DNA from: Cetorhinus maximus
Lineage: Eukaryota
Direction of reading: 5' to 3'
Assembly: GCF_964194155.1 (NCBI RefSeq)
Contig: NC_135896.1
Coordinates: 84,320,001-84,384,000 of the forward strand
Length of the DNA: 64,000 bases
The translations under genes and the position numbers were made by a program. Positions within the stretch are counted from its first letter, which is position 1. Every line of letters starts with the position of its first letter. Positions 3,321-62,650 of this stretch are shown one piece after another. The notes under the pieces are model-generated. The model saw only the letters and a list, made by a program, of their open reading frames with translations, had not been told where the DNA came from and made no database searches.

Positions 3321-3325
3321 CCCTT

Positions 3326-3702
3326 TGAAGATGGTACGCTCTCCAATCCCGCAACAACCACAGAGACTCAGGCTTCCTTTTAACTGGTTTTATTCAAGCA
3401 TATGCAAGGGAGCCCCAATCATTCCTAAGAATGAAGACCCAGCTTCCAGATTGATTACATTTCACTACTTTTGTACTTTTTCTTATCGTAATACATTTGA
3501 GTACATTTGAATACATCCAATCGGTAACTGACACACCGGTCCCATGCTATCTCTATCCTATTGAGTACATAAACATGTGATTTTGCTAACCAATTATTCT
3601 AAAGGATGTATACATAATTATATTATCCAACCAAAATTAAAACACGTACACAAAGACCTTGGTTCCCACAACTCAAGGCTGTTTGTGTTTCATCAAAGCC
3701 CT
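3326..3702 (-). repeat. 3' LTR, U3-truncated
   Basis: Aligns to 9493-~9857 with roughly 25-30 substitutions and two indels (by eye). Similarity stops after catcaaagccc. AATAAA on the minus strand near 3390. Confidence 0.92.
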
Positions 3703-3885
3703 TGGCAAAGCCCAAGCTGGCCACACCTTAAGTTGAGAATTCTTCTTCTGGTCCTTCGGGTGGCCAGTTGTCCAGACCACCAGAGGAATCCTAAGCCACC
3801 TGGTTGTATAACATAACCTTCCCTTCCCTTGTCTTCTCCCTCGGAGTATGCATAGGTTGGGGAACTGATGCGCACCTTTGGTTTG

Positions 3886-6037
3886 TTACTGTCTGTGCCT
3901 GAAGAGTTCCTTTTTACGTTGGTAGCAGCAGAGTCCGATAGCCCATAAGAGCATGATTCCTGTGACTATCGTCATACCCATTCTAACAATCTCCCACCAA
4001 TTCATCAATCTTCCGGCCATAGCATAGGAAGTAGCTGATTGGGCTAACCTGGCCGATTGGGTGGCTAAATCCACTTACACACGCCCCCTCACGATTTGCT
4101 CTCTAGAAGCTTCTACATACGATTGAGCTATTCTTGTGGCTTCCTGCATGGCTAGGCATGCTATTCTGACAGGAGTTTGATCAGTGAACAATGTATGATC
4201 CCCCAAGCGCTAAACAAGTATCCTATGGTCTGCCTGGCAAATGAAAGTCTCCTATAGTAAATAGATCGGTCAGCTGTAGGCAGAAACTCGAGTTGCTAGC
4301 ACAAAGCAAGTCCCCATAAAGGAACTCAGCCTCGCTGGTCATGAAGCACCATTGAGTTGAGGACATCTGAATTGCCTTAAATGCTTCCTGAATTGGTAAT
4401 GTGGTGAATGTGACTTTACTAGTATTTGTAAATACCTCCAGCGTTCGACATGAGCACACTATGTAATTTCTTGATTCTGTACAACAATCTCTAGTACTCA
4501 TCAGTACCATGTCTTTTACATAGGATATATATCCACGTAGCCCTATGCGGTATACCATCCTCCCTTTATCTACTCCTAGGGACTCAAACCTATAGCTGTT
4601 CGGGAAAGCCGTGTTTGGATGATGTTCTTGGGGAATGGCCATGATGAATTTTATGACTCCATCCTCTCCTCCACCTTGAGGTTGTGTAATCACCAATTCC
4701 TGCCGCTCATTGCGCAAATTTGTAAGGTTTAATTGGTATACTGACTCGAACATGTGTTTGGGAATTGTTCCAAACCTGATATCTTCAATGTCGGATTTTA
4801 CCCCATCAATTAGGTTCTCGCGCTGGCATATTGCATGCCCTCCCTGTGGCTTGTGATTTGGCTGCGTCTATTATCTCATCTGCGATCTGCCTAAGGATCT
4901 GTAGCAGACCCTCTCCTTGTAGCTCCACGGCTGTCAGGGCATATCCTGTCCCGCACGCATTGAAGTGCAGTCTCAGCGGCCACCCAGGAGGCATAATCAT
5001 TTAAGTCATAGATCTGATCTGAATTAAGCATGGAATTGGCACTCAACAAGAAGCCCTCCGATATCTCATGGTGTACTTCTCTTTAACCTAACCTGTGCTT
5101 TTGCTCTAATTCCCAGAACAATTCGAAATTTATAGTCTTTGACTATCCTCTTCAGTTGGCTTCTAGCCCATTTTATGGAATTCTGATGGCTGTGACAAGT
5201 CGTATGCAATACTGACAGTAGTCCTGAGATATTATATGTCACTTCCAGGGAGACCATAGTTACATCATGCAGTAATGGTTCTGAATTTCCTAACCTATTC
5301 CGTCCAGGGGGGACTTACTACATCTGGTCATTGACTGGGTCTTTGATAGCCACACATCATCAAGGTGAAACATCATGTATCATAACAACCATGCCTATTA
5401 CATATTTACATGTTCCTTGATAATATTGTCCCTCAAGACCCGGTTCCCAAACAAAGGGAGGTAGGTCTGTCCATCTGGCGGTCACATTAATCTCTTGATA
5501 CATCCAAATGCTTGTTGATGAAAAACTGGTAGGGGGTGCATACATTCTACATCCCCCATACCACCAACCCAGTCCAGTTCTATTGTCATAAATCCCAATT
5601 ATCGTTACCCCACCACTCGTGTCTATGCTTATGCTTAGTGAGGTGTTACTGGCTATTTCCCGCTGGGGTGTATCCTCAAAAGTGCATTCGTCAGTTCATC
5701 ATTGTCCTTACCCTTGGGTAAGTACTACCATCCCGTGAAGCTCCCGTTGTTACACTCGAGTGGTGTCAATCGAACTGGCTGCCCTGGTGTTGTTAAATGT
5801 AGAGTACTCCTACAACTCTTTGTGTGATTGCACGTGGGGGTCCTGTTCCCAAGTGTTCATTTGATGTGTCCGTGCAGTGACTTGATCCATAATCCAGGTG
5901 TTGGGCTTCCTTATCCATTCCCCACTTCCTCCTTGGGGAAGTAGTAAGTACTGCCCAGGGTGAAGGCAGGTGTCATTATTGACTTTGACCGTTGGTGCCT
6001 CCCATGCCAGTGCTAACATGCCCAGAGCCAGGATCAT
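3886..6037 (-). pseudogene. env: env glycoprotein, class I fusion (F-like), with stops and frameshifts
   Basis: Signal peptide MILALGMLALAWEA, furin site RLKR (5089-5078), fusion-peptide/heptad region, Cys-rich segment DCCTESRNYIVCSC...QWC...C...FC, then TM WWEIVRMGMTIVTGIMLLWAIGLCC and a basic tail. Confidence 0.85.
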
Positions 6038-6727
6038 GGACCTGTGGAAACATTAACATTGGATCCGTCGTCTGGGTTATCATTACTTCCTTCATATGGT
6101 TTTAATTGAGGATAATGTTTCCATTTGCTTCCTGTTTTCGTATCCACAAGTGCGCACTTATCACCTGTCATAATTACCTCATATGATCCGTACCATCTGG
6201 GTGCGAACCCAGGTCGTTCTGGGCTCATCTTGACTATTACCCTGGTCCCCACCTGAGGGGTTCACTGCTGTTCTTCATACTTATCTGCCTCTATGTCCCT
6301 AATCATCTGTCTGTCTCTAACTTCCTCTCTCAACTCATGTAATTGCTTCCCTAATTCTCTTACATAGTCCCATATTCTTCCTTCCAGTGGCCCTACATCC
6401 CCTCCTCTTACTATAATTCCTTTGGGTAATTGCATGGCCCTGCCTGTCATCAATTTAAATGGGGTGAACCTGGTAGTCCTATTTGGTGTAGCCCTAAGGC
6501 GCATCAGAATGCTGGGCAATACGGTGGCCCAGTTGTTCCCTGTCTCCGGAATTGCTTTGGCTATAGATGTTTTTAAAGTTCGGTTCATCCTTTCCACCAC
6601 CCCTGAACTCTGGGGGTGGTAAGGAATATGGAATTTCTCTTTAATCTCCATAAGTTTACACATTTCTTTAATGACTCTCCCTGTGAAATGAGTTCCCTGA
6701 TCTGACTCCATCTGGATAGGCACCCCC
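6034..6727 (-). pseudogene. pol: Integrase core (second D and E) plus C-terminal domain, 5'-truncated
   Basis: SDQGTHF...PYHPQSSGVVERMNRTLK...LMTGR, then PRWYGSYEV (GPY/F-like) and WKHYPQLK. One break near 6260. Confidence 0.93.
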
Positions 6728-6734
6728 GCTCTTT

Positions 6735-6975
6735 CCAGTTTACTATCTCCTGCTGCTGTCTCATGTCGGACCTCAATTCCTTAAGCTGCCTACACAACTC
6801 TACAACGCACCTTCTTATCCTGACTTTCAATGGCTCAGTATCTTCACTTCCAGTGGAAGTTCTCTCTGGGAGCCACTTAACTCTGCCTGTCATCAAGGTA
6901 TTAATCCTGTGGTCTTACTTTTTGTAGCTCGCAGGCACATTAATATAGTCAGTAATACATCTATGTAGCCTTTTT
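6735..6975 (-). pseudogene. Second, diverged integrase remnant
   Basis: DVLLTILMCLRATKSKTTGLIP / LMTGRVKWLP...PLKVRIRRCVVELCRQLKELR aligns with TVLPSILMRLRATPNRTTRFTP / LMTGRAMQLP...PLEGRIWDYVRELGKQLHELR of the adjacent copy. Confidence 0.8.
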
Positions 6976-8730
6976 TCCAGCTTTCCCTTTACCTGTATCC
7001 ATCTTGTGGTAAATTGTTGTTAAGTATTATTTCTCCTTCCCTTCAGCTGCCTCAACTACAGATTCCGAATAGTTTTACCTCTAAGGTTTTTTTTTCCTGA
7101 CCACGATCCTCCTAAGATTCTCTTGAGGTCAGTTTCTCTATTGTCTTGATCATTTAAAATGTTTCCTTACTCTTTAGGCCATATTAACTATTCCATGTCA
7201 ATGGGAATCTCTGTCTCTAGAACTTTGCTTATCTTCCCCTGTGCGGTTCCAATGTCTCAGTTGATGGCCAGATTATCAAACTCAGTTCCCTTACATTATG
7301 TCCTCTTTCCCTAACTCTTTCTCCTACTTTCCTCATACCATTTTACACATGCAATAGCTACCATCTTATCTCGTTCAGAGGTTGTCTGGAGAGACTTTAC
7401 AGTCCAATAAAATATTCTCATAACAGTTTTAAAACAGAAATCAGGCATTGATAAGTCTTGCTTCCTTATCTTCTTCTCAAACAACATTTTACTGTCTCAA
7501 AAGTAACCCACTAAATTGTTTCTGACCCTTTTCTTAAAAAATTATTCCAGACTCATTAACTCGGGCAAAAAATTGGATTTCTGCCAAACTTTGTCAAGGT
7601 CTTGAGCTTAATTTCAAATTTTGATAACAGACTCACAAATGCAAAAGCTTACAGCATTTGAATTAGTGCCAATTGTTGTCAAAAACCTTTTAAATTGAAA
7701 ATTCCCTTTTGAGAACTTTATCAAAAACCAAACCTCAAATTTTAAACTTTGTAAGAACTGTAATTTACACTATCAAAATTAAAACAACCTCTTTTTCATG
7801 TGTAATGATTTGTATCCAGATTATAAATCCCCTATGTTTATCGATACATTCTTTATCTTTGGATAGCATCCTCATTATTCAAAGTAACCAGTTAAATTAC
7901 ACTGCACTTTACATCTCAAGATTGTCCCAAATTCAAATTACATTGCTGTTAGAATGCAGGTTTCCGTTAATATTTAATTAATCTCTTCAAAAGAAATCCC
8001 TTTTTATCCATTGGAACCACCTAGACCATGTGTTTATGTCTTTTGGTTTTCCTTGAATCCTTTAGAATTTCAGGTAATCTTTTTTTTTCCCTCAGAATTT
8101 GAGAAAACCAACTCATATGTATCAATCCCAATCAGCTTGGAAGCTGGTGATGAGGGTTATTCCTTACTAGTCTGCAAGGGGGTGGTACAAGGGTTGGTTC
8201 ATCTCAAACAAAGGCAAACCCTGTTTTATCTTTGCAATACCTTCAAATTGCATTTTTTGCCAGAAATCTCAACTCAAACCTTATACTCAAAACTTTGGAA
8301 TGTTTTAGTATACTTTTCCTTTAATCTAATATGGGGCTTTCAACTCTAAAGTGTTGAACTACACACACAAATGATAATTTAGGGAAGAAAACACATTAAA
8401 GCTCACATGCAAATGCTTCTTTGCACACAAACACATATATAAAGGTATGTATTTATATTCCTATAATATTGAACTTAACTCTAACTGAAACTTCAAGTAG
8501 CAGTGGGGGGAATAAAGGGATCTTGGAGGCTCCACCCATAGGGACAATCAAACTGACTGAAGCTCACATTTCCTCTGCTCCTGCCTGTCACTGCTCCCTA
8601 ATTTCCCCTAGGGGTACCCCCTTTCTCTCTCTCTCCCTCTCTCTCTCTTGAGCACAAACAGCTCTTGTAACTTAGATCAATTCATTTCTTTTAAGTTACA
8701 AAATTCAGTAGAGGACCTTTCAGGTCCCAA

Positions 8731-9066
8731 TTATCCTTCCACATAGTCCCAATATCTATTGGTGGCCCCTGGGAGAAATTGATCTGCCGCTGTGACCGGC
8801 GCAACTCGTCTGCGATATTTCTGCATTAGTTTAGTTTGTTGCAGATACAGACTCAAAATGAGTACTGTAGCTTTGTCAGTTTTATCGTTAATCTGAGCTT
8901 TCCACCACTCAGAGCATGATGGAGGATCGCCCTGCTGCCAACCTTGTTGTTTCATTCTGCTGATCTGCTTTTTATGCTTTCTGGCGAGGTGAAGGGACAT
9001 GGTTCCTTCACCTCCCCATTCGGTAATGAACTCGAGTTCGGTCTTCTCGGCCATATCCACACACAA
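8731..9066 (-). CDS. Short open frame at the gag position (putative Gag N-terminus)
   Basis: First ORF after the PBS and leader (MAEKTELEFITEW...), 111 codons. Assigned by position only. Confidence 0.5.
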   Translation of the reverse strand: MCVDMAEKTELEFITEWGGEGTMSLHLARKHKKQISRMKQQGWQQGDPPSCSEWWKAQINDKTDKATVLILSLYLQQTKLMQKYRRRVAPVTAADQFLPGATNRYWDYVEG

Positions 9067-9087
9067 ACTAAATGGTCACACACAAAC

Positions 9088-9329
9088 TAAACAGGGACCC
9101 ACAGTTCCCACGAGATCTGAGTCTCCTGAGGCTCAATCACCCCACACCAAAACAGGGACCCACAGTTCCCCTGAGGTCTGAGTCTCCTGAGGCTCAATTG
9201 CCCCACACCAAAACAGGGACCCACAGTTCCCCCGAGATCTGAGTCTCCTGAGGCTCAATCACCTCAGACCAAAATGGGGACCCACAGTTCCCCTGAGATC
9301 TGAGTCTCCTGAGGCTCAATTGCCCCACC
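9088..9329. repeat. 4 x 61-bp tandem repeat in the ERV leader
   Basis: gggacccacagttccc..gag.tctgagtctcctgaggctcaat recurs every 61 bp. Confidence 0.95.
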
Positions 9330-9469
9330 TGTCCAACTGAGTCTCCCTGACCAAAACGTTCGGATTCGCCCTATTAGACCTCCATTCTAGTCTGATGCGA
9401 GCAACTGGAGAGTATCTTTCAAATGAAAATACTCACCAGATCATTGTTCCACCTTCGCAGACGTCTGGG

Positions 9470-9490
9470 CGAATCCTGCCGACTACGCCA
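9470..9490 (-). promoter_or_regulatory. Primer-binding site, tRNA-Ser
   Basis: Plus strand cgaatcctgccgactacgcca equals the 3' end of vertebrate tRNA-Ser(AGA/TGA) plus CCA, 2 nt from the LTR edge. Confidence 0.92.
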
Positions 9491-9492
9491 GT

Positions 9493-10110
9493 TGAAGATG
9501 GTACACTCTCCAATCCCGCAGCGACCACAGAGACTCAGGCTTCCTTTTAACTGGTTTTATTCGAGCATATGCGAGGGAGCCACAATCATTCCTAGGAATG
9601 ATGACCTAGCTCTCAGATTGACTACATTTCATTACTTTTGTACTTCTTATCATAATATATTTGAGTACATTTGAATATATCCAATAGTTAACCGACACAT
9701 ACTAACTCTATCCTATTGAGTACATAAATATATGATTTTGCTAACCAATTATTCTAAAGGATGTATACATAATTATATCATCCAATCAAAATTAAAACAC
9801 GTACACAAAGACCTTGGTTCTCACAACTCAAGACTGTTTGTGTTTCATCAAAGCCCCTTCTTTGTCCCTTGTTCGTCTTCCCATATCTAAGCTAAAACCA
9901 TCTGCCCCTTCCTTATGTGAGAGGGGAGTACACTTAATCTAATTTATGTCATACTTTTGTCTCCAGTCTGACTTTCAAGGCTGTGCAATGTTCATCTGGT
10001 AATCTTCAACTCTTAATATGTTTAGCAGCCATGTCTGCCTGGAGATTTTAAGGGTTTTTCAGTAAATTCTTACTGTATTCTCTTTTAGCATTTTTAATTT
10101 CCCCGTAACA
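9493..10110 (-). repeat. 5' LTR (618 bp)
   Basis: Minus strand reads TGTTAC...CTTCA, bounded by the TSD and the PBS, with AATAAA near 9557. Confidence 0.93.
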
Positions 10111-10115
10111 CCCTT

Positions 10116-15422: not shown

Positions 15423-18051
15423 TGGTGATTTCACTAACACCCTGTAAAACAGTAGCAAAACTTCCCTATTTTTATACTTCATTCCCCTTGCAATAAACAA
15501 CAACATTCCAGTTGCCTTCTTGCTGTACCTGCATATGGAATTTTGTGTTTCATGTACCAGGATACTCAAAATCCTCTGTACTAGACAGTTCTACAATTGC
15601 TCTCTATTTAAATAATATACTGTTTTTCTATTCTTTCTGCCGAAGTTGACAGGTTCACATTTTCATATTTCACCTGTCGTTCTTTTCCCCACTCACTTAA
15701 TCTATCTATATCTCTTTGCAGACTCCTTAAGTCCTCTTCACAACTTACTCTCCTACTTAACTTTGTGTCATCAACAAGTTTAGCAATCATACATTTGGTC
15801 CCTATTTTGGTGTCATCAGCAAATTTAGCTGCCATGCTTTGGTCCCTTCATCTATATCTCTGCTTCCTATTAGCTAACCAATCCTCTAAATTAAGGAATT
15901 ACCTCCTACACCATGAGCTTTTATACTGTGTAGTAATCTTTGATGTATTATCCTTTGTTGCAGTAACCTTAACAAATGCCTTTTGGAAATTCAAGTACAC
16001 CATATCTCCTTTATCCACATTGCTTGTTATCTCTTCAAAGAACTCTAATAAATTAATCCTTTTCACATAACCATGTTGACTCTTGATTGCATTAAGATTT
16101 TCTAAATGCCCTGCTATACCCTCCTCAATAATAGATTCTAGCATTTTCCGAATGACCAATATTAGATTAGTGGCCTGTAGTTTCCTGCTTTCTGCCTCCA
16201 TCCTTTCTTGAATAGAGTAGTTACATTTGTTATTTGTTATTTTCCAATCTGATGGGACCTGTTCATAACCTAGGTAATTTTGGAAAAGTATAACAATATA
16301 TCCACTATCTCCACAACCACTTTTTTTTAACACTCTAGGGTGAAATCCATTAGGTCCTGGAGATTTGTCAGCCTTTGGTTCTAATTCAGTACCCTTTCCC
16401 TGCTGTTTTCCCTCTCTCTCATCTCCTGATTCACACTTATTTCTGGGGTGTTATTTGCATCCTCTACAGTAAAGACAGATGCAAAGTATCTGTTCAGTTC
16501 AGCCATCATTTCCTTATTCCCCACTATTAATTCCCCAGACTCATTCTCCAGAGGGGCAACACTCAATTTAGTTACTGTTTCCCTTTTTAAATACTTGTAG
16601 AAACTCTTACTATCTGATTTTGTATTTCTAACTAGCTTTCTCTCATACTCTAATTTCTTCGTCCTTATTTATTTTAGTCATTCTTTGCTGGCTTCTAAAC
16701 TCTGTTGAATCTTCTGACCTACCACTAATCTTCACAGAAGCTTTTTCTTTCAATTTGATACAATCTTTAACTTCCTGAGTTAGCCACGGATAGTGCAACC
16801 TTGATGAACAATCTTTCTTTTTCACTGGAATGTATCTATGCTGAGTATTATGAAATAGCTCCTTAAATGTCTGCCACTGCATTTCTACGGACCCACCCCT
16901 TAACCTAATTTCCCAGTTCAGTCTTTGTACCCTTGTAATTGCCTTTATTTAGGTTTAAAGCCCTAGTCTTAAACTTATTCTTCTCTCCCTCAAACTGAAG
17001 CCAAAATTCAGCCATGTTATGATTATTCCTGCCCAGATGTTCCTTTACTATGAGGTGATTAATTAATGCTGTCTCATTGCACATTACCAGGTCTAGAATA
17101 GCCTACTTTCTGGTTGGCTCTGGAATGTGCGGCTCTAAAAAATTGTCCTGAAAACACTCTATGAACTCATCTTCCAGACTACCTTTGACAATCTGATTCA
17201 CCCAATCTATATGTAGATTAAAATCACCCATGATTATTTCCATGCCTTTCTTACAAGCTGCCATTATTTATTCCTGTATAATCCCATCCTACAGTGTAGT
17301 TACTGTTAGGGGGCCTATAAACTACTCCCACAAGTGACTTCTTACATTTGCTATTTCTTATCTCTACCCAAACTGATTCTAAGTCTTGATCTTTAGAGCT
17401 AAAGTCATCCTCAGTATTGTACTAATATCATCCTTCACTAACAGAATTACCCTTCCACCTTTTCCTAGCTAGCTGTCCTTCTGAAATGTCAAGTACCCTT
17501 GATTATTCAGGTCCCAGCCTTGGTTACCTTGCAGTCATATCTCTGCAATGGCTTTCAGATCACACATATTTATTTATATTTAAGCTGACAATTCATGCAT
17601 TTTGTTATGAATGCTATGCGCATTCAGATACAGAGCCTTCAGTTCTGTCTTCTTAATACTTTTGCAAACTCTGGCCTTATCTGTTGGTGCACTTTTAAGT
17701 TTGTATGCTCTGTCCCTTCCTGCATTGTCTGATTATCATTACCTTTATAGCTTGCTTTCTTCCTTTTCCTTCCCCTTCTGTCACCTGATCACTCGCCCCC
17801 CCACCCCCCACCCCACCCACCATTCTGCTATTTAGTTTAAATCCCTCTCTACTACCCCATTATATGACTCGTCAGAACACTGGTCTCAGCACAGTTCGGC
17901 TGAAGACCATCTCGAAGGTACAGCTCCCACTTTCTCAAGCACTGGTCTCAATGCCCCATGAATCAAAACCCATTTTTCGCACACTAATATTTGAGCCATA
18001 CTTTCAAATCCATAGTCTTATTTATCCTGCACCAATTCGCCTATAACTCAG

Positions 18052-21959: not shown

Positions 21960-24715
21960 TGGTCCTTTGTCTCCATCCAGATCTAAATAGTATGTCCGAG
22001 GCCCCATATTCCAATCCAATGTTATCAAGGCTTCCCTGTTCCTTCTGATATTTCCCTGGTCCATCTCAACTCTATAAGGTCTCGATCATGGAGCTCTTAC
22101 TATTATAATGCCTTCTTTCTGTTGATCTCATATCCACATCCTCTCCGTGGGCTGTAGCACTTATAAGCCTCGGGTTCTGTGCCTGAAGTTGCCAAGCTTG
22201 ACTGTGTCTTTGTTGCTCCTCATGCTTTCTAACTCTCTCATGATCATCTGGGGTAATGTTATTTTGTAGCGTTTGTTGTCGAACTGGAAGTGATGTTTGC
22301 AGCTGTCCTCCACTCTATAGTTCTGATGTGAGTACCTATTTTTTTTTAGCCGTGACATTCCATAGTTAAGGGATAAGTTACTTTCTTTGTTCTTTTGCAT
22401 CAATTCCTCGATTGTTTGAACTCCTCTTTCTGCTTCCTTGTTCGACTGAGGATATCTAGGTGCACTGGTCACATGCATGAAAATATATTCCTGCACAAAG
22501 TTATGGAACAGTTTGTTAGTAAGCTGAGGACTGTTTTCTGACACCACAACATATGAGAAGCCATGTGTCACGAAGATTCATGATGCAATGCGGTCTACTC
22601 AATTCAAACCATCTGGAGTAGCACTCAATGAGATGATGAAAACTTTTCCTTTAAACTCAAATAAATCCATTCCCAGGTGCTGCTATATCCTCAAAGGAAA
22701 AGTAGAGGGTGCCAGTAGTTCACCCTGCTGTTGGCTATTCAATGCACACGTAAGGGAATTCATGATTAACTCTTCAATGGAATGAGTGATGCCTGGCCAC
22801 CAGCCTGACTGCTGGGCTCTTACTTGGCATTTCACTATTCCTAAGTGACCTTGATGGATTTTCTGGAGAATGTAGAGTTGAAGTGTTTTAGGGATGACTA
22901 GTCTCTCATTGAGAATGAATAAATCATCAATGAATGTGAGACGTTCTCTCAGTTCTAAGTATTGAAAAAATACTGGTTTGTTAGGAGTATAACCTAACCA
23001 TCCATTCTGGCAATACTCATCTTGCTGTTGTGCTTGTATAATCTCTTGTAATCTCTTTCCTGTGGCTGGTAAGTGTTTAGTCATGAGTGAAGTATATTCT
23101 TCCAATCCCTCAATGAACTTTAAATCTTCCAGTTTGATCAATCCATTGGTATTCTTGATGGTGCATTTGCTGTTGCCTAGTATTGCCTGTGAATGTACTC
23201 AGTAACTGAATCATATCTCATGAGTCTCAGTCTAAAATGTTGAAACCTAGTCATCATTTTTGCAATTTCCTTTACGTTAAGAGGAGTAACCAAAGGCTTG
23301 TGGCTGATTTCAATTTTAAACCTTAAACCCATCACAAAATCAGAGAACTTGTCTCAGTCCCTTTCGGCTGCTAATGATTTTTCTCAATGGTTGTATTTCT
23401 TTTCTTGGTGTCCATAAGAGATGTTGAGGTGTAGTAATCAGTCTTCTTTTCCCATATTTTTGAACTTGAAACAGCACTGCACCCAAGCCTGTAGATGATG
23501 TTGGCGATTCTGGATTGTAATGCGCTAGAATTTCTGGTGAAATCAGGAGATTTTTGATCTTGTCAAAAGCATTTTGCAGGTCCATATTCCAGCACCACTT
23601 GACCTTATTTCAACAGTTATCATAATGGCTCATTGATTCCTTCCAAATTTGGTAGGAACTTGCCTACTTAGTTGACCATCCAAAGGAATCTTTGTAATTC
23701 TGTGATGGCTCTCGGCTGTCGGGACCCTCTAGTTGCCTTGATTTTCTGCCAGTTGGCAGTAATTTCTAACACTTGCACAATGAGCCCTAAGAATTTTATC
23801 ATATGCTTTGCAAATTCACATTTGTTGTTTAATGTCAAACTTGCTTCTTGTAGAACCTTGAGGATTGCTCTCATTCAATGGCCATGTCCTTTCCTCGATG
23901 AACCACGTATGAGAATGTCGACCATATGGCATATTACTCCTTCCATGTCTTCCAGGGTCTGAGACATCATTCTTTGGAATGTCTCAGGTACAGAAGCAAT
24001 TCCGAATGGTAACCTGTTAAAATAATGATAACCAAATGGGGTGAAAAGGGTAGTTAAAAATCTGGATTCTTCATCCAGAGGCAACTGTCAAAAGTCACTG
24101 CTTGCATACAATTTTGTGAAGAGGGTGCTTTTTGCTAATTTGGTGAGACTTTCATCCACTGATGCCATTGGGTGAATCTTTAATTGAATCATTAGTCTTG
24201 GTGCTGTGGCCATTCCAGAACAGCACTTAATGGTTACTGGAGAGATGATCCGTTGTTATAACAGGTGTTCAATCTCGATCTTGACTTTGTCCAGTGGTTG
24301 AGGGACTTTCCTCACTGTGGAGGTATATATAGGGTTAGCATCAGCCCTTTGGATTGTGAAATTCTGATTTCAGCTTTCCCAAATGGGGTTGGAAATTCAT
24401 TTCTGCTCTTCAGAAATTTTATCAACCTTGTAAATCAGCCTCAACTGCAAACATGCTTCCCTGATGAGTAATGATGACTCCTGGTTCTTTATCACATACA
24501 GGGGTTCCAAACTTTCTTTATCCTTGTATCTTAATCCCCCAAGTTGCTGGCCTATCACTTTCAGTATAGTCCCTCCTGCAACTTGCAACTAAATAGAGGA
24601 TGGCTGTAATGTGATATTTTTAAGCCACGTTACTTCATCAGGTAATACTGAAACACCCTCACCACTACCTAGCTTGAATTCTGCGGGGTGACCATCAACT
24701 TCTAATTTAATGCTC
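21960..24715 (-). pseudogene. pol: Gypsy pol (protease, RT, RNase H, integrase)
   Basis: TPFGYHYFNRLPFGIASVPETFQR...HMVDILI; HQGHLGIVKC...WWPGI; HVTSAPRYPQSNKEAER. Many stops and frameshifts. Confidence 0.92.
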
Positions 24716-36297: not shown

Positions 36298-37291
36298 AGA
36301 GTCGTAGAGTCATAGAGGTCTACAGCACAGAAAAAGGCCCTTCGACCCATCTGCGCAGGTCAAACAAGTACCTAACTATTCTAATCCCATTTTCCAGCAC
36401 TAGGCCCATAGCCTTGTATGCCACGGTATTGCAAGTGCACATCCAAATACTTCTTAAATGTTATGAGGATTTCTGCCTCCAGCACCCTTTCAGGCAGTGA
36501 GTTCCAGATTCCCACCACCCTCTGGGTAAAAAAATTCTTCCTCATGTCCCCTCTAAACCTCCTACCTCTTACCTTAAATTTATGCCCCTTGGTTATTGAT
36601 CCCTCCACCAAGGGGAAAAGTTCCTTCCTGTCTACCCTATCTATGCCCCTCATAATCTTATACACCTCAATCATGTCCCCCCTCAATCTCCTCTGCTCCA
36701 GAGGAAATAACCCCAGTCTATCCAATCTCTCCTCATAACTAAAACTCTCCAGCCCAGGCAACATCCTGGTAAATCTCTGCACTCTCTCTAGTGCAATCAC
36801 ATCCTTCCTATAATGCGGATTCCAGAATTGCATGCAATACTCTAGCTGTGGCCTAAACAGCATTTTATACAGTTCCAGCATATCCTCCCTGCTCTTATAT
36901 TCTATGCCTCAGCTAATAAAGGCAAGTATCCCATATGCCTTCTTAACCATCTTATCTACCTGTCCCACTACCTTAATGGTCCGGTGGACATGCACACCAA
37001 GGTCCCTCTGATCCTCGGTACTTCCCAGGGTCCTACCATTCATCGTGTATTTTGGTGCCTTGTTTGTCCTGCCCAAGTGCATCACCTCACACTTATCCGG
37101 ATTAGATTCCATTTGCCACTGATCAGCCCATCTGACCAGCCTGTCTATGTCCTTCTGTAATCTAAGGCTATCCTCCTCGCTATTTACCTCCCCACCAATT
37201 TTCGTGTCATCCGCGAACTTACTGATCAACCCTCCTACAATCAAGCCTAAATCGCTTATATATACTACAAACAGCAAGGGTCCCAACACCC
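36298..37291 (-). mobile_element. Young CR1/HER1-like LINE, 5'-truncated
   Basis: Nearly intact LGPLLFVVYISDL...KFADDTK...RPQLEYCMQFW...FFTQRVVGIWNSLP. Confidence 0.93.
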
Positions 37292-49047: not shown

Positions 49048-49881
49048 TCATCTGATCCTTAGATGCGGAATGGGATTTACACACTTCTGTACTGCAGCAC
49101 ATTCACTTTCTTTTGTTGCACTATTTCTAATGTATAAATCCCTCTCTGTGGCTTGGTTGTGACTGTGTGGCTGCAAATAGCTGGGTTTATAGTTCAGCCT
49201 TCTCTTTTTGGTGTTAGATTTCTCCAACTCATGCTTAATTTCAACATTTTCAAGCTCCATTTGATGCTCAACTTTAAATTTTTCTAAGGTGCTATTCAGC
49301 TGTAGAAGCTTTATAGTTTGGGCCTCAGCTTCTTTACTGAAAGAAATCTTGAGTGCTTCCATGGCTAGCTGATGAGATCCAAGTGCGGACTCTAGCTTTC
49401 GTTTATGCAGATTAATGACCTCTGAACTTTTACTATTGGTTTGAAGCGATTTGGAGTCAAGCATCTCATTCTCCCTGGATAGCTTTTTCCTGGCTGCTTC
49501 CAATTGTTGTTGCCTGTCATTCGTCGGCTCAGTGGAATAAGCAGACAAATTCACCTCTTTATTACCTTCTTCAACAGGGGGGTTATTCCCCTCAAAAGAG
49601 ACATAGGAGACTTCACGATAATTGGCAGTGGAGTCAAAGAGTGTAGTAAGGTCCAGGTCCTCTTTTTCCAACAGATCATCTGCCTCTGTGGCGGCTACAT
49701 TCTCTTGCACTCTTTCCTGAAAGAGGCAACTGAGGTCTAGAATATCATCTTGTGGGTGGTCACCATCTTTCTTGGTGCATCCTATTCCTGCTTCTTCTAG
49801 CCTGTTCCAAAAGAGAAGTGAAAGATTTGTAATATCCTCCTGCGGTCCCTGGAGTTGAATAGAGGGTGGTTCCAGTGTCAC
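49048..49881 (-). CDS. Chimeric ORF: protease tail, acidic repeats, CLIP1-like coiled coil
   Basis: TLEPPSIQLQGP resembles the protease tail ITLQPSSI*LQV at ~24600. KLSRENEMLDSK...KLESALGSHQLAMEALKISFSK resembles CLIP1 as I recall it. Confidence 0.75.
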   Translation of the reverse strand: MTLEPPSIQLQGPQEDITNLSLLFWNRLEEAGIGCTKKDGDHPQDDILDLSCLFQERVQENVAATEADDLLEKEDLDLTTLFDSTANYREVSYVSFEGNNPPVEEGNKEVNLSAYSTEPTNDRQQQLEAARKKLSRENEMLDSKSLQTNSKSSEVINLHKRKLESALGSHQLAMEALKISFSKEAEAQTIKLLQLNSTLEKFKVEHQMELENVEIKHELEKSNTKKRRLNYKPSYLQPHSHNQATERDLYIRNSATKESECAAVQKCVNPIPHLRIR

Positions 49882-50039
49882 TCTATTCAGCCATGAAACT
49901 GTCAGCTAACACTAAGACATGAACCCCTGTGTCTAGCTTGAATTTGGTCAGAGCTATTTACATCAATATCACCACTCCAATACTGGTTTTTATTTTCCAT
50001 TATTTCTCCTAGGAAGATGATTTCCTAGTTGTCAAAGTC

Positions 50040-60929: not shown

Positions 60930-62650
60930 ATCATGCCGCTTTGAGCGTATCACCACGTAGAAGCTGACCCTCATCATCCTCTTCAGGTTCCTGCTTTCCA
61001 GTCCTTCACCATCTGAGGAGTTCTTAGCCTCCTCCATGGACAGGCTTTTTGGGTCATCAGGCGTGCGCGGTGGGCGGGCCCGGGAGCGGCCGGGACATGG
61101 GACCCTGACTGCAATTGGCTCCCGACCGCGATTTCACACTGGCTGGTCAATTAACGGCCAACCAGCGCGAAACATGCTGGGGTGGGGGCGGAAGGAGTGC
61201 AAGTGCAGAGGTCTGTGCATGCACCAGGGAGCGCGTACTGAAAGCTCCCTGAAAGCAGGGGCTGCCTCAGGGAGCTGGGACTAACTCACAATAACATAAA
61301 CAGAATAAAAATTCTGCCCAAAAATGTATATTTATTTTTTATTTAATTGTGGAAACCTCATCCCGCCCACGGATGACGTTTGCTAAAAAATCAAAAGGCC
61401 ACCTGGCCAACTTGCCCACCCGCCAACCGTAAGGTTGCATGGGCAGCGGAAAATAGGTTTGAATTAATTGATTAAGCGCCCTAATAGGTCTCTTAATTGT
61501 TGGCGGGCGCGCCGCTGACTCTCCTGCGCACCCGCCAACCGAAATATCGCGATTGTGCGCAATGACGTCGGGACACTTGCCTGACGCCATTGGGCACCAC
61601 TTTACTCCCAATTGGGTCGGGCGTGCACCCGCCTGCGGGATATAAAATCCTGCCCCCTGGCAAATGATCTCCTCTTGCAGTGCCAGGTTGGGCAGGACGC
61701 AACAGAGCACGATGATGTGGGACCCCTTCTCTGGAGAGTACAGCTGAGCCTTACCGGAACGGTCCAAACAACCGAAGCACATCTTCAGGATGTTAATGGC
61801 CTGTTCAATGATGGATCTTGTCGCAGAGTGCGCCGCGTTGTATCTCTCCTCCGGGGCAGTTTGACAATGCACGAGTGTCATGAGTCAACTTTTCAGCAGG
61901 TACCCCTTATCACTCAACAACCAACTCTGTAGGCGCTGCTGCCCTTGAATATCTGGGAGTGCCTCAGGATATAGGAGTCATGGGAACTCCCAGGGTACCT
62001 GGCACAAATGTGCAGGATGTGCTTCTGCTGATCGTATGCCAGCTGAATGTTGAGGGTATAGAGCCCTTTCCTGTTAATGAACATCAGGGGCTGCACTTAA
62101 TGTGACATGTGGGCAATTGATTACACCCTGTATTCTAGGGAAGCCTCAGGTTGCCACAAATCCATTGTAAACTTCATATAATGATAAGCCTTACTGTAGA
62201 GGGTATCCATCGCCGCCTTTACACATTTATGTGTGGAGGACTGAGAGATGCTGCATAGGTCCCCGATGGATACCTGGAACAACCAACTGGAAAAACATTG
62301 AGTACTGCGGTGACCTTCAGGGGCACTAACAGAGGATGGCCTCCCGGCCTGTGTGGTGAGAGATCCTCCCGCAGAATGTGGCGGATATGCACCACCGCAT
62401 CTCTTGACAAGCATAGGCCTGCGCGGCACCGCCTCTCATTCATCTCCAAATAGGAAAGGCACCTTCAGCAGACCCTTGGTCTTACCAGTATTCTTCATTG
62501 GATGGGTCAGACTTCCTCAGCCTCTGGCTCTTCTTGGGGCTCCCCTGGACTACACACCCCAGGCCGGGGCTCACCTCGAAGCCGTGCTAGATGGTGCTGG
62601 GCCCTTCATCTCCTCCTCAATTGGAACCCTGGCATCAGGAAGGCAGCATT
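60930..62650 (-). pseudogene. Harbinger (HARBI1-type) DDE transposase
   Basis: FINRKGLYTLNIQL...ARYPGSSHDSYIL; GDKGY; ERYNAAHSATRSIIEQAINILKMCFGCL...IIVLCCVLPNLAL; acidic tail beyond the MITE. Confidence 0.92.
61038..61655. mobile_element. Harbinger-like MITE inserted in the transposase 3' end
   Basis: Termini ggacaggctttt / aaaatcctgccc with flanks CAT/CCT. Related to 18052-18758. Confidence 0.75.

Follow-up and report, generated by a model that had tools for sequence, protein, structure and literature searches.

The provirus at the locus and its subfamily

This study concerns an endogenous retrovirus (ERV) in a 64,000-nucleotide stretch of contig NC_135896.1, called the window throughout, which an initial annotation had described as lokiretrovirus-like, with an envelope gene (env) resembling viral fusion (F) proteins. 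The provirus lies on the minus strand, as do the LTRs and internal features described below, and spans 3326–10110, with the annotated target-site duplication CCCTT located on either side (3321–3325 and 10111–10115). Its 5′ long terminal repeat (LTR; 9493–10110, 618 bp, TG...CA) is complete, whereas the 3′ LTR (3326–3701) is truncated and has lost the U3 start and the polypurine tract, so that the annotated pairing of LTRs holds only in part. Because sister copies carry a full 3′ LTR and the purine tract at this place, the window copy has a 3′ LTR deletion; a reading of 3702–3813 as a different U3 was rejected, as sister copies show internal sequence there. The primer-binding site (9470–9490, 21 nt) lies 2 nt from the LTR and is complementary to the 3′ end of tRNA-Ser(AGA), as annotated: a pattern of 18 of the 21 bases occurs 31 times in the genome and its reversed control 0 times, and all four fetched genomic loci with the pattern are tRNA-Ser(AGA) genes. 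The adjoining leader holds tandem copies of a 61-bp unit (9089–9328).

The two LTRs of the window copy differ by a Kimura two-parameter distance of 0.079 over 364 bp, and nine sister LTR pairs, in some of which the ends were set about 45 bp off, by 0.028–0.073. Under substitution rates of 2.2e-10 and 2.2e-9, as used in PMC4422223 and PMC7947760, the value of 0.079 translates into an age of 180 or 18 million years, a wide range.

Between the LTRs, a 5′ gag remnant (8731–9052) is followed by about 1.8 kb of filler (6990–8760), common to the subfamily, which replaces most of gag, protease (pro), reverse transcriptase (RT) and RNase H. The filler gave no protein match among the fetched proteins, no pro, RT or RNase H was found in the window copy, and Rfam and ARAGORN scans of the window returned nothing. 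A second, more decayed integrase-core piece (6744–6990; 47–51% to the RT-bearing copy L058) lies just upstream of a junction at about 6725, followed by the integrase remnant (6034–6747), which comprises the second half of the core and a GPY/F-like C-terminal domain. The remnant matched rve at E 1.8e-4, under the Pfam cut-off, and its GPY/F-like part matched MLVIN_C at E 0.1, or 3.8e-4 in the relative L061, both under the curated cut-off. The annotated retroviral integrase is genuine but reduced to a remnant, with the zinc finger and first catalytic Asp absent from the window copy.

The broken env occupies 3790–6030 (ends approximate). Read from the sequence, it encodes a hydrophobic N-terminus, a variable surface (SU) part, the cleavage motif RLKR (5078–5089), a fusion-peptide-like stretch, a helical and Cys-rich ectodomain and a transmembrane segment (about 3925–3981), consistent with the annotated layout. 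Five frame changes relative to the open reading frame (ORF) of the sister copy L041, at least one more in SU, and several stops interrupt it. The annotated GGLL.SANSMLNS stretch crosses one of these frame breaks, although the same motif is unbroken in sister ORFs. The annotation had also recognised no gamma-type immunosuppressive domain with adjacent CX6CC, and this was upheld: none of the three frames of the window env holds a CX6CC or immunosuppressive-domain-like motif, and none of the 66 members of the env alignment matches TLV_coat (PF00429), which the positive control L090 matches at 6.7e-12.

Relatives were sought across a 3.99-Gb genome. Env gave 153 matches (150 of 659 candidates scored); 40 of 1551 LTR candidates and 40 of 1354 filler candidates were scored, at ≥90% and ≥86%, respectively; and the RT search scored 150 of 11,922 candidates, among the rest of which an intact copy may exist. 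Thirty-four loci, including the window, were classed: 25 carry filler without RT, six carry RT without filler, and three match neither pattern; 28 of 29 filler loci also bear a gag or integrase remnant. The genome thus holds RT-bearing copies, for which the annotation had proposed a search, and the four that were read (L042, L053, L058 and L059) are all broken. Their common order is gag with CCHC motifs, protease, a YVDD RT, tether, RNase H, integrase and env. Gag ends in an in-frame TAG in both copies checked (L058 and L059), two CCHC-like motifs were read in the L042 gag, the tether (PF17919) was found in L059 and an RNase H ORF in L053; zf-CCHC was absent from the Pfam matches of the frameshifted ORF of L053.

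In all five RT-bearing copies compared, the match to the window ends at 6723–6727. Taken together, the locus holds a dead, otherwise unremarkable member of a non-autonomous ERV subfamily, and we infer that an old defective backbone took up fresh integrase–env cassettes at the junction near 6725. L065 (5379–7455) carries this non-coding filler at 79% identity, but together with an env of another, distantly related type, which suggests that the defective backbone swapped cassettes across families.

Placement of Pol

The RT tree comprised 41 rows and 424 columns under LG+C20. Seventeen near-duplicate or redundant references were removed before the first tree and 16 further rows from later trees, among them P0028, which sits on a long branch, and two short fragments of the family; three Pol proteins without a YxDD match and two integrases with short matches were also removed, and CmiERV, ERV-L/S and ERV4 references and fish foamy-like ERVs lay outside the sampling. 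The reference viruses bear names that we presume from the layout and motifs of their viral contigs. The family was recovered at 95/95. It nests with shark ERVs and two database proteins in a clade supported at 100/98, which in turn groups with class I, class II and two teleost lineages (97/93). The family RT lies outside the 100/99 clade that holds gamma, epsilon and class II viruses, and did not group with the foamy viruses sampled. The snakehead retrovirus (SnRV)-type reference, foamy viruses and two other lineages branch deeper than the shark clade, in no settled order, and all retroviruses were united to the exclusion of lokiretroviruses (loki) at 93/96. The proteins labelled loki (P0031, P0033 and P0035) have an RT motif matching Loki-Tfu of the lokiretrovirus supplement and a position sister to all retroviruses.

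Pairwise scores were obtained for the same domains. RT similarity was 3e-37 to murine leukemia virus, 2e-14 to foamy virus and 1e-8 to Ty3, and RT scores were 234–276 bits to shark relatives, 124–139 to SnRV-type, 87–91 to loki and 42–83 to foamy sequences. The best exogenous match of the RT N-terminal half was SnRV-type, at 139 bits. RNase H, compared by phmmer score and not by tree, gave 44–77 bits to gamma, epsilon and SnRV-type sequences, 17 to loki and 5–12 to foamy.

The annotation had called for an integrase tree, and this placed the integrase of the window copy with shark ERVs (94–97) but within a broader clade (SH-aLRT 93), to which loki and proteins bearing the name NYNRIN-like belong as well; the window copy is not sister to loki there, and CGIN1, to which loki integrase is close, was not among the references. 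Integrase does not separate a loki from a canonical placement. Another abundant retrovirus-like lineage was seen in the genome (L143, L191–L196), of which L143 groups with amphibian and coelacanth NYNRIN-like-named proteins, not with loki.

The annotation had called the element lokiretrovirus-like and suggested that it may extend the loki host range. A true lokiretrovirus in a shark would account for an F-like Env with RxKR, fusion peptide, coiled coil and transmembrane segment, as described in PMC7947760, and the integrase falls in the broad clade that includes loki. In addition, approximately unbiased (AU) tests did not reject the grouping of shark and loki sequences (p 0.055 under LG+G4, 0.103 under the mixture model), and RT alone is for this reason not conclusive. 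The RT tree, however, places the family inside canonical retroviruses, the RT and RNase H scores to loki are low, and a TAG separates gag from pol whereas Loki-Str has a single Smc-Gag-Pol ORF. Furthermore, about 330 residues precede the env cleavage site, as against about 120 in two loki Envs of the supplement; env has no PF00523 match; and loki Pol found matches of only 31–37% identity among the 43 scored in this genome, a floor from a stricter first look. The element is not a lokiretrovirus, and we give the proposal and its host-range extension next to no weight. The screen of PMC7947760 included five chondrichthyan genomes, with 0 of 3 for Orectolobiformes, and its loki RNase H grouped with foamy viruses.

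Alternatively, the element may simply belong to the SnRV clade (clade Huo; CmiERV lineage I), which is known from cartilaginous fish already; only its Env fold would then be new. PMC4422223 and 10.1101/2023.10.17.562709 report SnRV-clustering ERVs from elephant shark and assign most chondrichthyan RT loci to clade III, respectively. The gag–stop–pol layout and a colinear Env are shared with the SnRV-type sequence L081, the RT N-terminal half points the same way, and an AU test of shark plus SnRV was not rejected (p 0.2). On the other hand, the 97/93 branch parts the shark clade from the SnRV-type reference, which joined that clade in none of the best trees, built without CmiERV. We rate this membership at slightly under even odds; it overlaps with the reading favoured below, the difference being one of name only. 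The annotated "new lineage" is partly right, in that the family belongs to a shark clade, which may be linked to the published SnRV-like shark ERVs.

The annotation had also noted a fit to class III/ERV4 elements. An ERV3/ERV4 element (ERV-L, ERV-S or crocodilian ERV4) would agree with the 5-bp duplication at this locus and with an RT outside classes I and II. In the LTR family, however, duplications are of 4 or 5 bp: of 29 loci, nine gave exact duplications, five of 4 bp and four of 5 bp, the others being unresolved (15), 3′ LTRs (4) or without an end found (1). The 5-bp length thus describes the locus and not the family; one LTR family yields both lengths (L164–L186, L044–L150). According to Table 1 of PMC4299795, ERV3/ERV4 elements lack gag zinc fingers and the GPY/F motif, whereas zinc knuckles and a GPY/F-like motif are both seen here, making this assignment improbable.

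Predicted fold and relatives of Env

The protein folded was the L041 frame (493 aa, 71–87% identical to the window pieces) with the 66-row alignment, and the model was compared with Foldseek as the single aligner. Against PDB, 193 matches were obtained at E ≤ 0.001, and every listed row is a pneumovirus or paramyxovirus F protein, from respiratory syncytial virus (RSV), henipavirus or parainfluenza virus (best E 4.6e-7, TM-score 0.27). Against BFVD, 35 matches were obtained: an unnamed 928-aa protein ranked first, walleye epidermal hyperplasia virus 1 (WEHV1) Env second and walleye dermal sarcoma virus (WDSV) Env fifth (E 5.5e-9 and 1.6e-7), with mononegavirus, baculovirus and nidovirus fusogens at lower ranks and feline foamy Env at rank 29 (E 5e-4). 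No gamma-type Env occurs among the named rows of the best 50 BFVD rows. Env is thus predicted to have the paramyxovirus/pneumovirus F fold, and the annotated F-likeness is supported at the level of the model by RSV and henipavirus F and the walleye virus Envs.

A profile search of 1.84 billion representatives with env returned 41 proteins at E ≤ 0.001. Ten were traced, to cyprinids, catfish, two clupeiforms, shark and sea turtle, with two clusters unnamed. The closest named proteins, compared with L041, are from Carcharodon (70%) and Scyliorhinus (49–55%). At the sequence level, env had no meaningful match in Pfam or PDB. Among 11 reference Envs compared with the env profile, the WDSV-type Env scored 14.4 bits, above all 1100 shuffles (maximum 11.5). 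By hhalign, WDSV- and SnRV-type Envs aligned colinearly over 241–281 columns (E 2–3e-4), the SnRV-type over 281 (E 2.6e-4, reversed control 0.31), and alignment A4 against the L081 Env gave E 8.9e-5; nine gamma-type and foamy Envs reached at most 72 columns.

Several further observations concern Env. The SnRV-type (L081:6131–9532) and WDSV-type (L126:5962–9648) Envs have no TLV_coat or other env Pfam match. One cyprinid cluster has 444 members, including long open frames (P0119, P0121, alignment A5). Several other ERV families of the same RT clade in this genome carry a homologous long Cys-rich env (L061–L071, L153–L156), and L071 also shows the tRNA-Ser primer pattern. P0001 and P0002 are annotated Scyliorhinus torazame isoforms that cover the transmembrane and SU halves of this env family, and that locus is possibly transcribed. 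In the catfish protein P0132, an Ig-like N-terminal part is fused to a piece of this env, which may reflect a faulty gene model.

The N-terminal SU part shows 27–45% identity for L042 and L053 against about 70% for other copies, with a conserved core, the stretches L042:2788–3312 and L053:2693–3344 differing sharply between copies. The variable SU part is likely a swappable receptor-binding region.

Env is about 27% identical to cyprinid Envs but 11–20% identical to those of the sister shark families that share its RT clade, indicating that env moves between lineages. The same figures would fit a recombinant origin, in which a canonical pol acquired the env of a lokiretrovirus or mononegavirus. 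Nevertheless, the top named retroviral fold matches are walleye virus Envs, homologues of this env are present in further shark families of the clade (hhalign probability 96.8, 359 columns) and the long SU part is unlike loki Env; we therefore consider such a capture unlikely.

Interpretation and comparison with known systems

We favour the reading, with a probability of about 0.8, that the element is a dead non-autonomous provirus of a canonical, likely shark lineage, with an Env predicted to have the F fold, which likely spread by means of the Gag and Pol of helpers of its own family. The annotated chondrichthyan host is likely correct as judged from sequence relatives: the closest named env proteins are from the sharks given above, and a Mustelus protein belongs to the cluster of the best Pol match.

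Several observations weigh against this reading, besides the AU result for shark plus loki and the integrase clade shared with loki. The RT tree samples a single loki lineage and a single Gypsy sequence, and the family RT only as fragments, two of which fill less than half the columns. PF00523 matched none of the 66 alignment members and none of four env ORFs, no PDB F chain matched env at the sequence level, and the HMM score of the SnRV-type Env (4.8 bits) was lower than that of the best shuffle. The env model is of modest confidence (pLDDT 54.9, pTM 0.33), was made from a sister copy and not from the window, and gave low TM-scores (0.15–0.31); no control protein was folded, and a first model (pLDDT 40) was unusable and not searched. 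The shark host is drawn from named relatives only. Finally, low omega cannot show env selection in the defective element. For substitutions common to at least three copies, omega was 0.22 (env) and 0.12 (integrase remnant), whereas private substitutions gave 0.72 and 0.70; the former show purifying selection and the latter near-neutral decay. Selection on env inside the defective element was considered and dropped, as the non-functional integrase remnant shows the same low omega; because this dead piece behaves alike, the low values reflect working ancestors and not use of env by the defective element.

A possible history builds on what was observed directly, namely the LTRs, the tRNA-Ser primer site, the loss of pro, RT and RNase H, the shared filler, the many copies, and RT-bearing relatives with gag–TAG–pol–env. 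The parent virus would have primed with tRNA-Ser, made Pol by read-through of the stop and entered cells through a class I fusogen, cleaved by furin, whose F-like core carries a variable SU part; by analogy, entry may work as in a virus bearing a loki or foamy Env. A defective RNA that kept its ends and packaging region would have been copied in trans by Gag-Pol of a helper of its own family, acquiring the integrase–env cassette more than once from working relatives at the fixed junction near 6725. The window copy would afterwards have lost part of its 3′ LTR and decayed.

Elsewhere in the window lie fragments of other repeats: an integrase zinc-finger piece (22683–23198), two LINE pieces (36381–36908 and 15899–16450), which we take to be CR1-like, and a DDE_Tnp_4 piece (61339–61884). 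A LINE fragment had nine matches, the sole named one being a ray protein. A 285-codon open frame on the minus strand (49048–49905) looks coiled-coil-like by eye and has no Pfam match.

The finding bears on the origin of retroviral Env. Wang and Han (PMC9040795) preferred independent env gains for loki and canonical retroviruses because canonical Envs showed no similarity to F; a link between foamy Env and F has been reported since then (PMC11468914). In the present family, a predicted F-type Env accompanies a canonical pol, probably in a shark; relatives occur in bony fish and a turtle, and walleye virus Envs match it in fold. Since proteins homologous to this Env are found in teleosts, a turtle and sharks, and weak alignments link it to SnRV- and WDSV-type Envs, an F-type Env is not a loki marker and may be ancestral. 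That the F fold is the ancestral retroviral Env, retained in loki, foamy viruses, SnRV, walleye epsilonretroviruses and many shark, teleost and turtle ERVs, with gamma- and beta-type Envs as later replacements, we regard as an evenly balanced proposition. If true, the view of independent env gains would be undercut, and a large set of shark, teleost and turtle ERVs would escape TLV_coat-based screens. Should the F-type Env of this family hold up, an F-like env would not diagnose loki, env surveys with gamma- or beta-type queries, such as those of 10.1101/2021.11.23.469661 and PMC12813294, would overlook a whole class, and the origin of retroviral Env would become testable by a structure-based tree. 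Shark ERVs of this grade are already published; no earlier report of an F fold in a shark, SnRV or epsilon Env was found in the literature searched, which held few subscription papers and does not establish absence from print.

Among known systems, foamy Env (PMC11468914) is alike as a canonical retrovirus Env with an F-related core and as a weak fold match, but it has no sequence similarity to the family Env, and foamy RT, RNase H and gag differ. Lokiretroviruses (PMC7947760) share an F-like Env with signal peptide, RxKR cleavage site, fusion peptide, coiled coil and transmembrane segment, the tether and RNase H common to all retroviruses, and the broad integrase clade; they differ in RT and RNase H placement, the gag/pol stop, the long SU part and the missing PF00523 match, and no smc gene was seen here. 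WDSV and WEHV1 resemble the family in Env only, as the best named retroviral matches by fold and profile, with a long Cys-rich transmembrane-subunit ectodomain and no TLV_coat match; they differ in that the family RT lies outside the class I clade and no cyclin genes were seen here. Relative to SnRV-type viruses, the RT is not joined to the reference, Env has about 740 codons as against about 1130, no 3′ accessory ORF was seen in this family, and the tRNA-Ser primer pattern was not found in L081. SnRV and SnRV-like ERVs (clade Huo, PMC6001957; CmiERV lineage I, PMC4422223) nonetheless share with it the gag–stop–pol layout, which also occurs in gamma and epsilon references, a CCHC gag, a YVDD RT outside classes I and II, a long Env with a colinear core, and reported cartilaginous-fish hosts.

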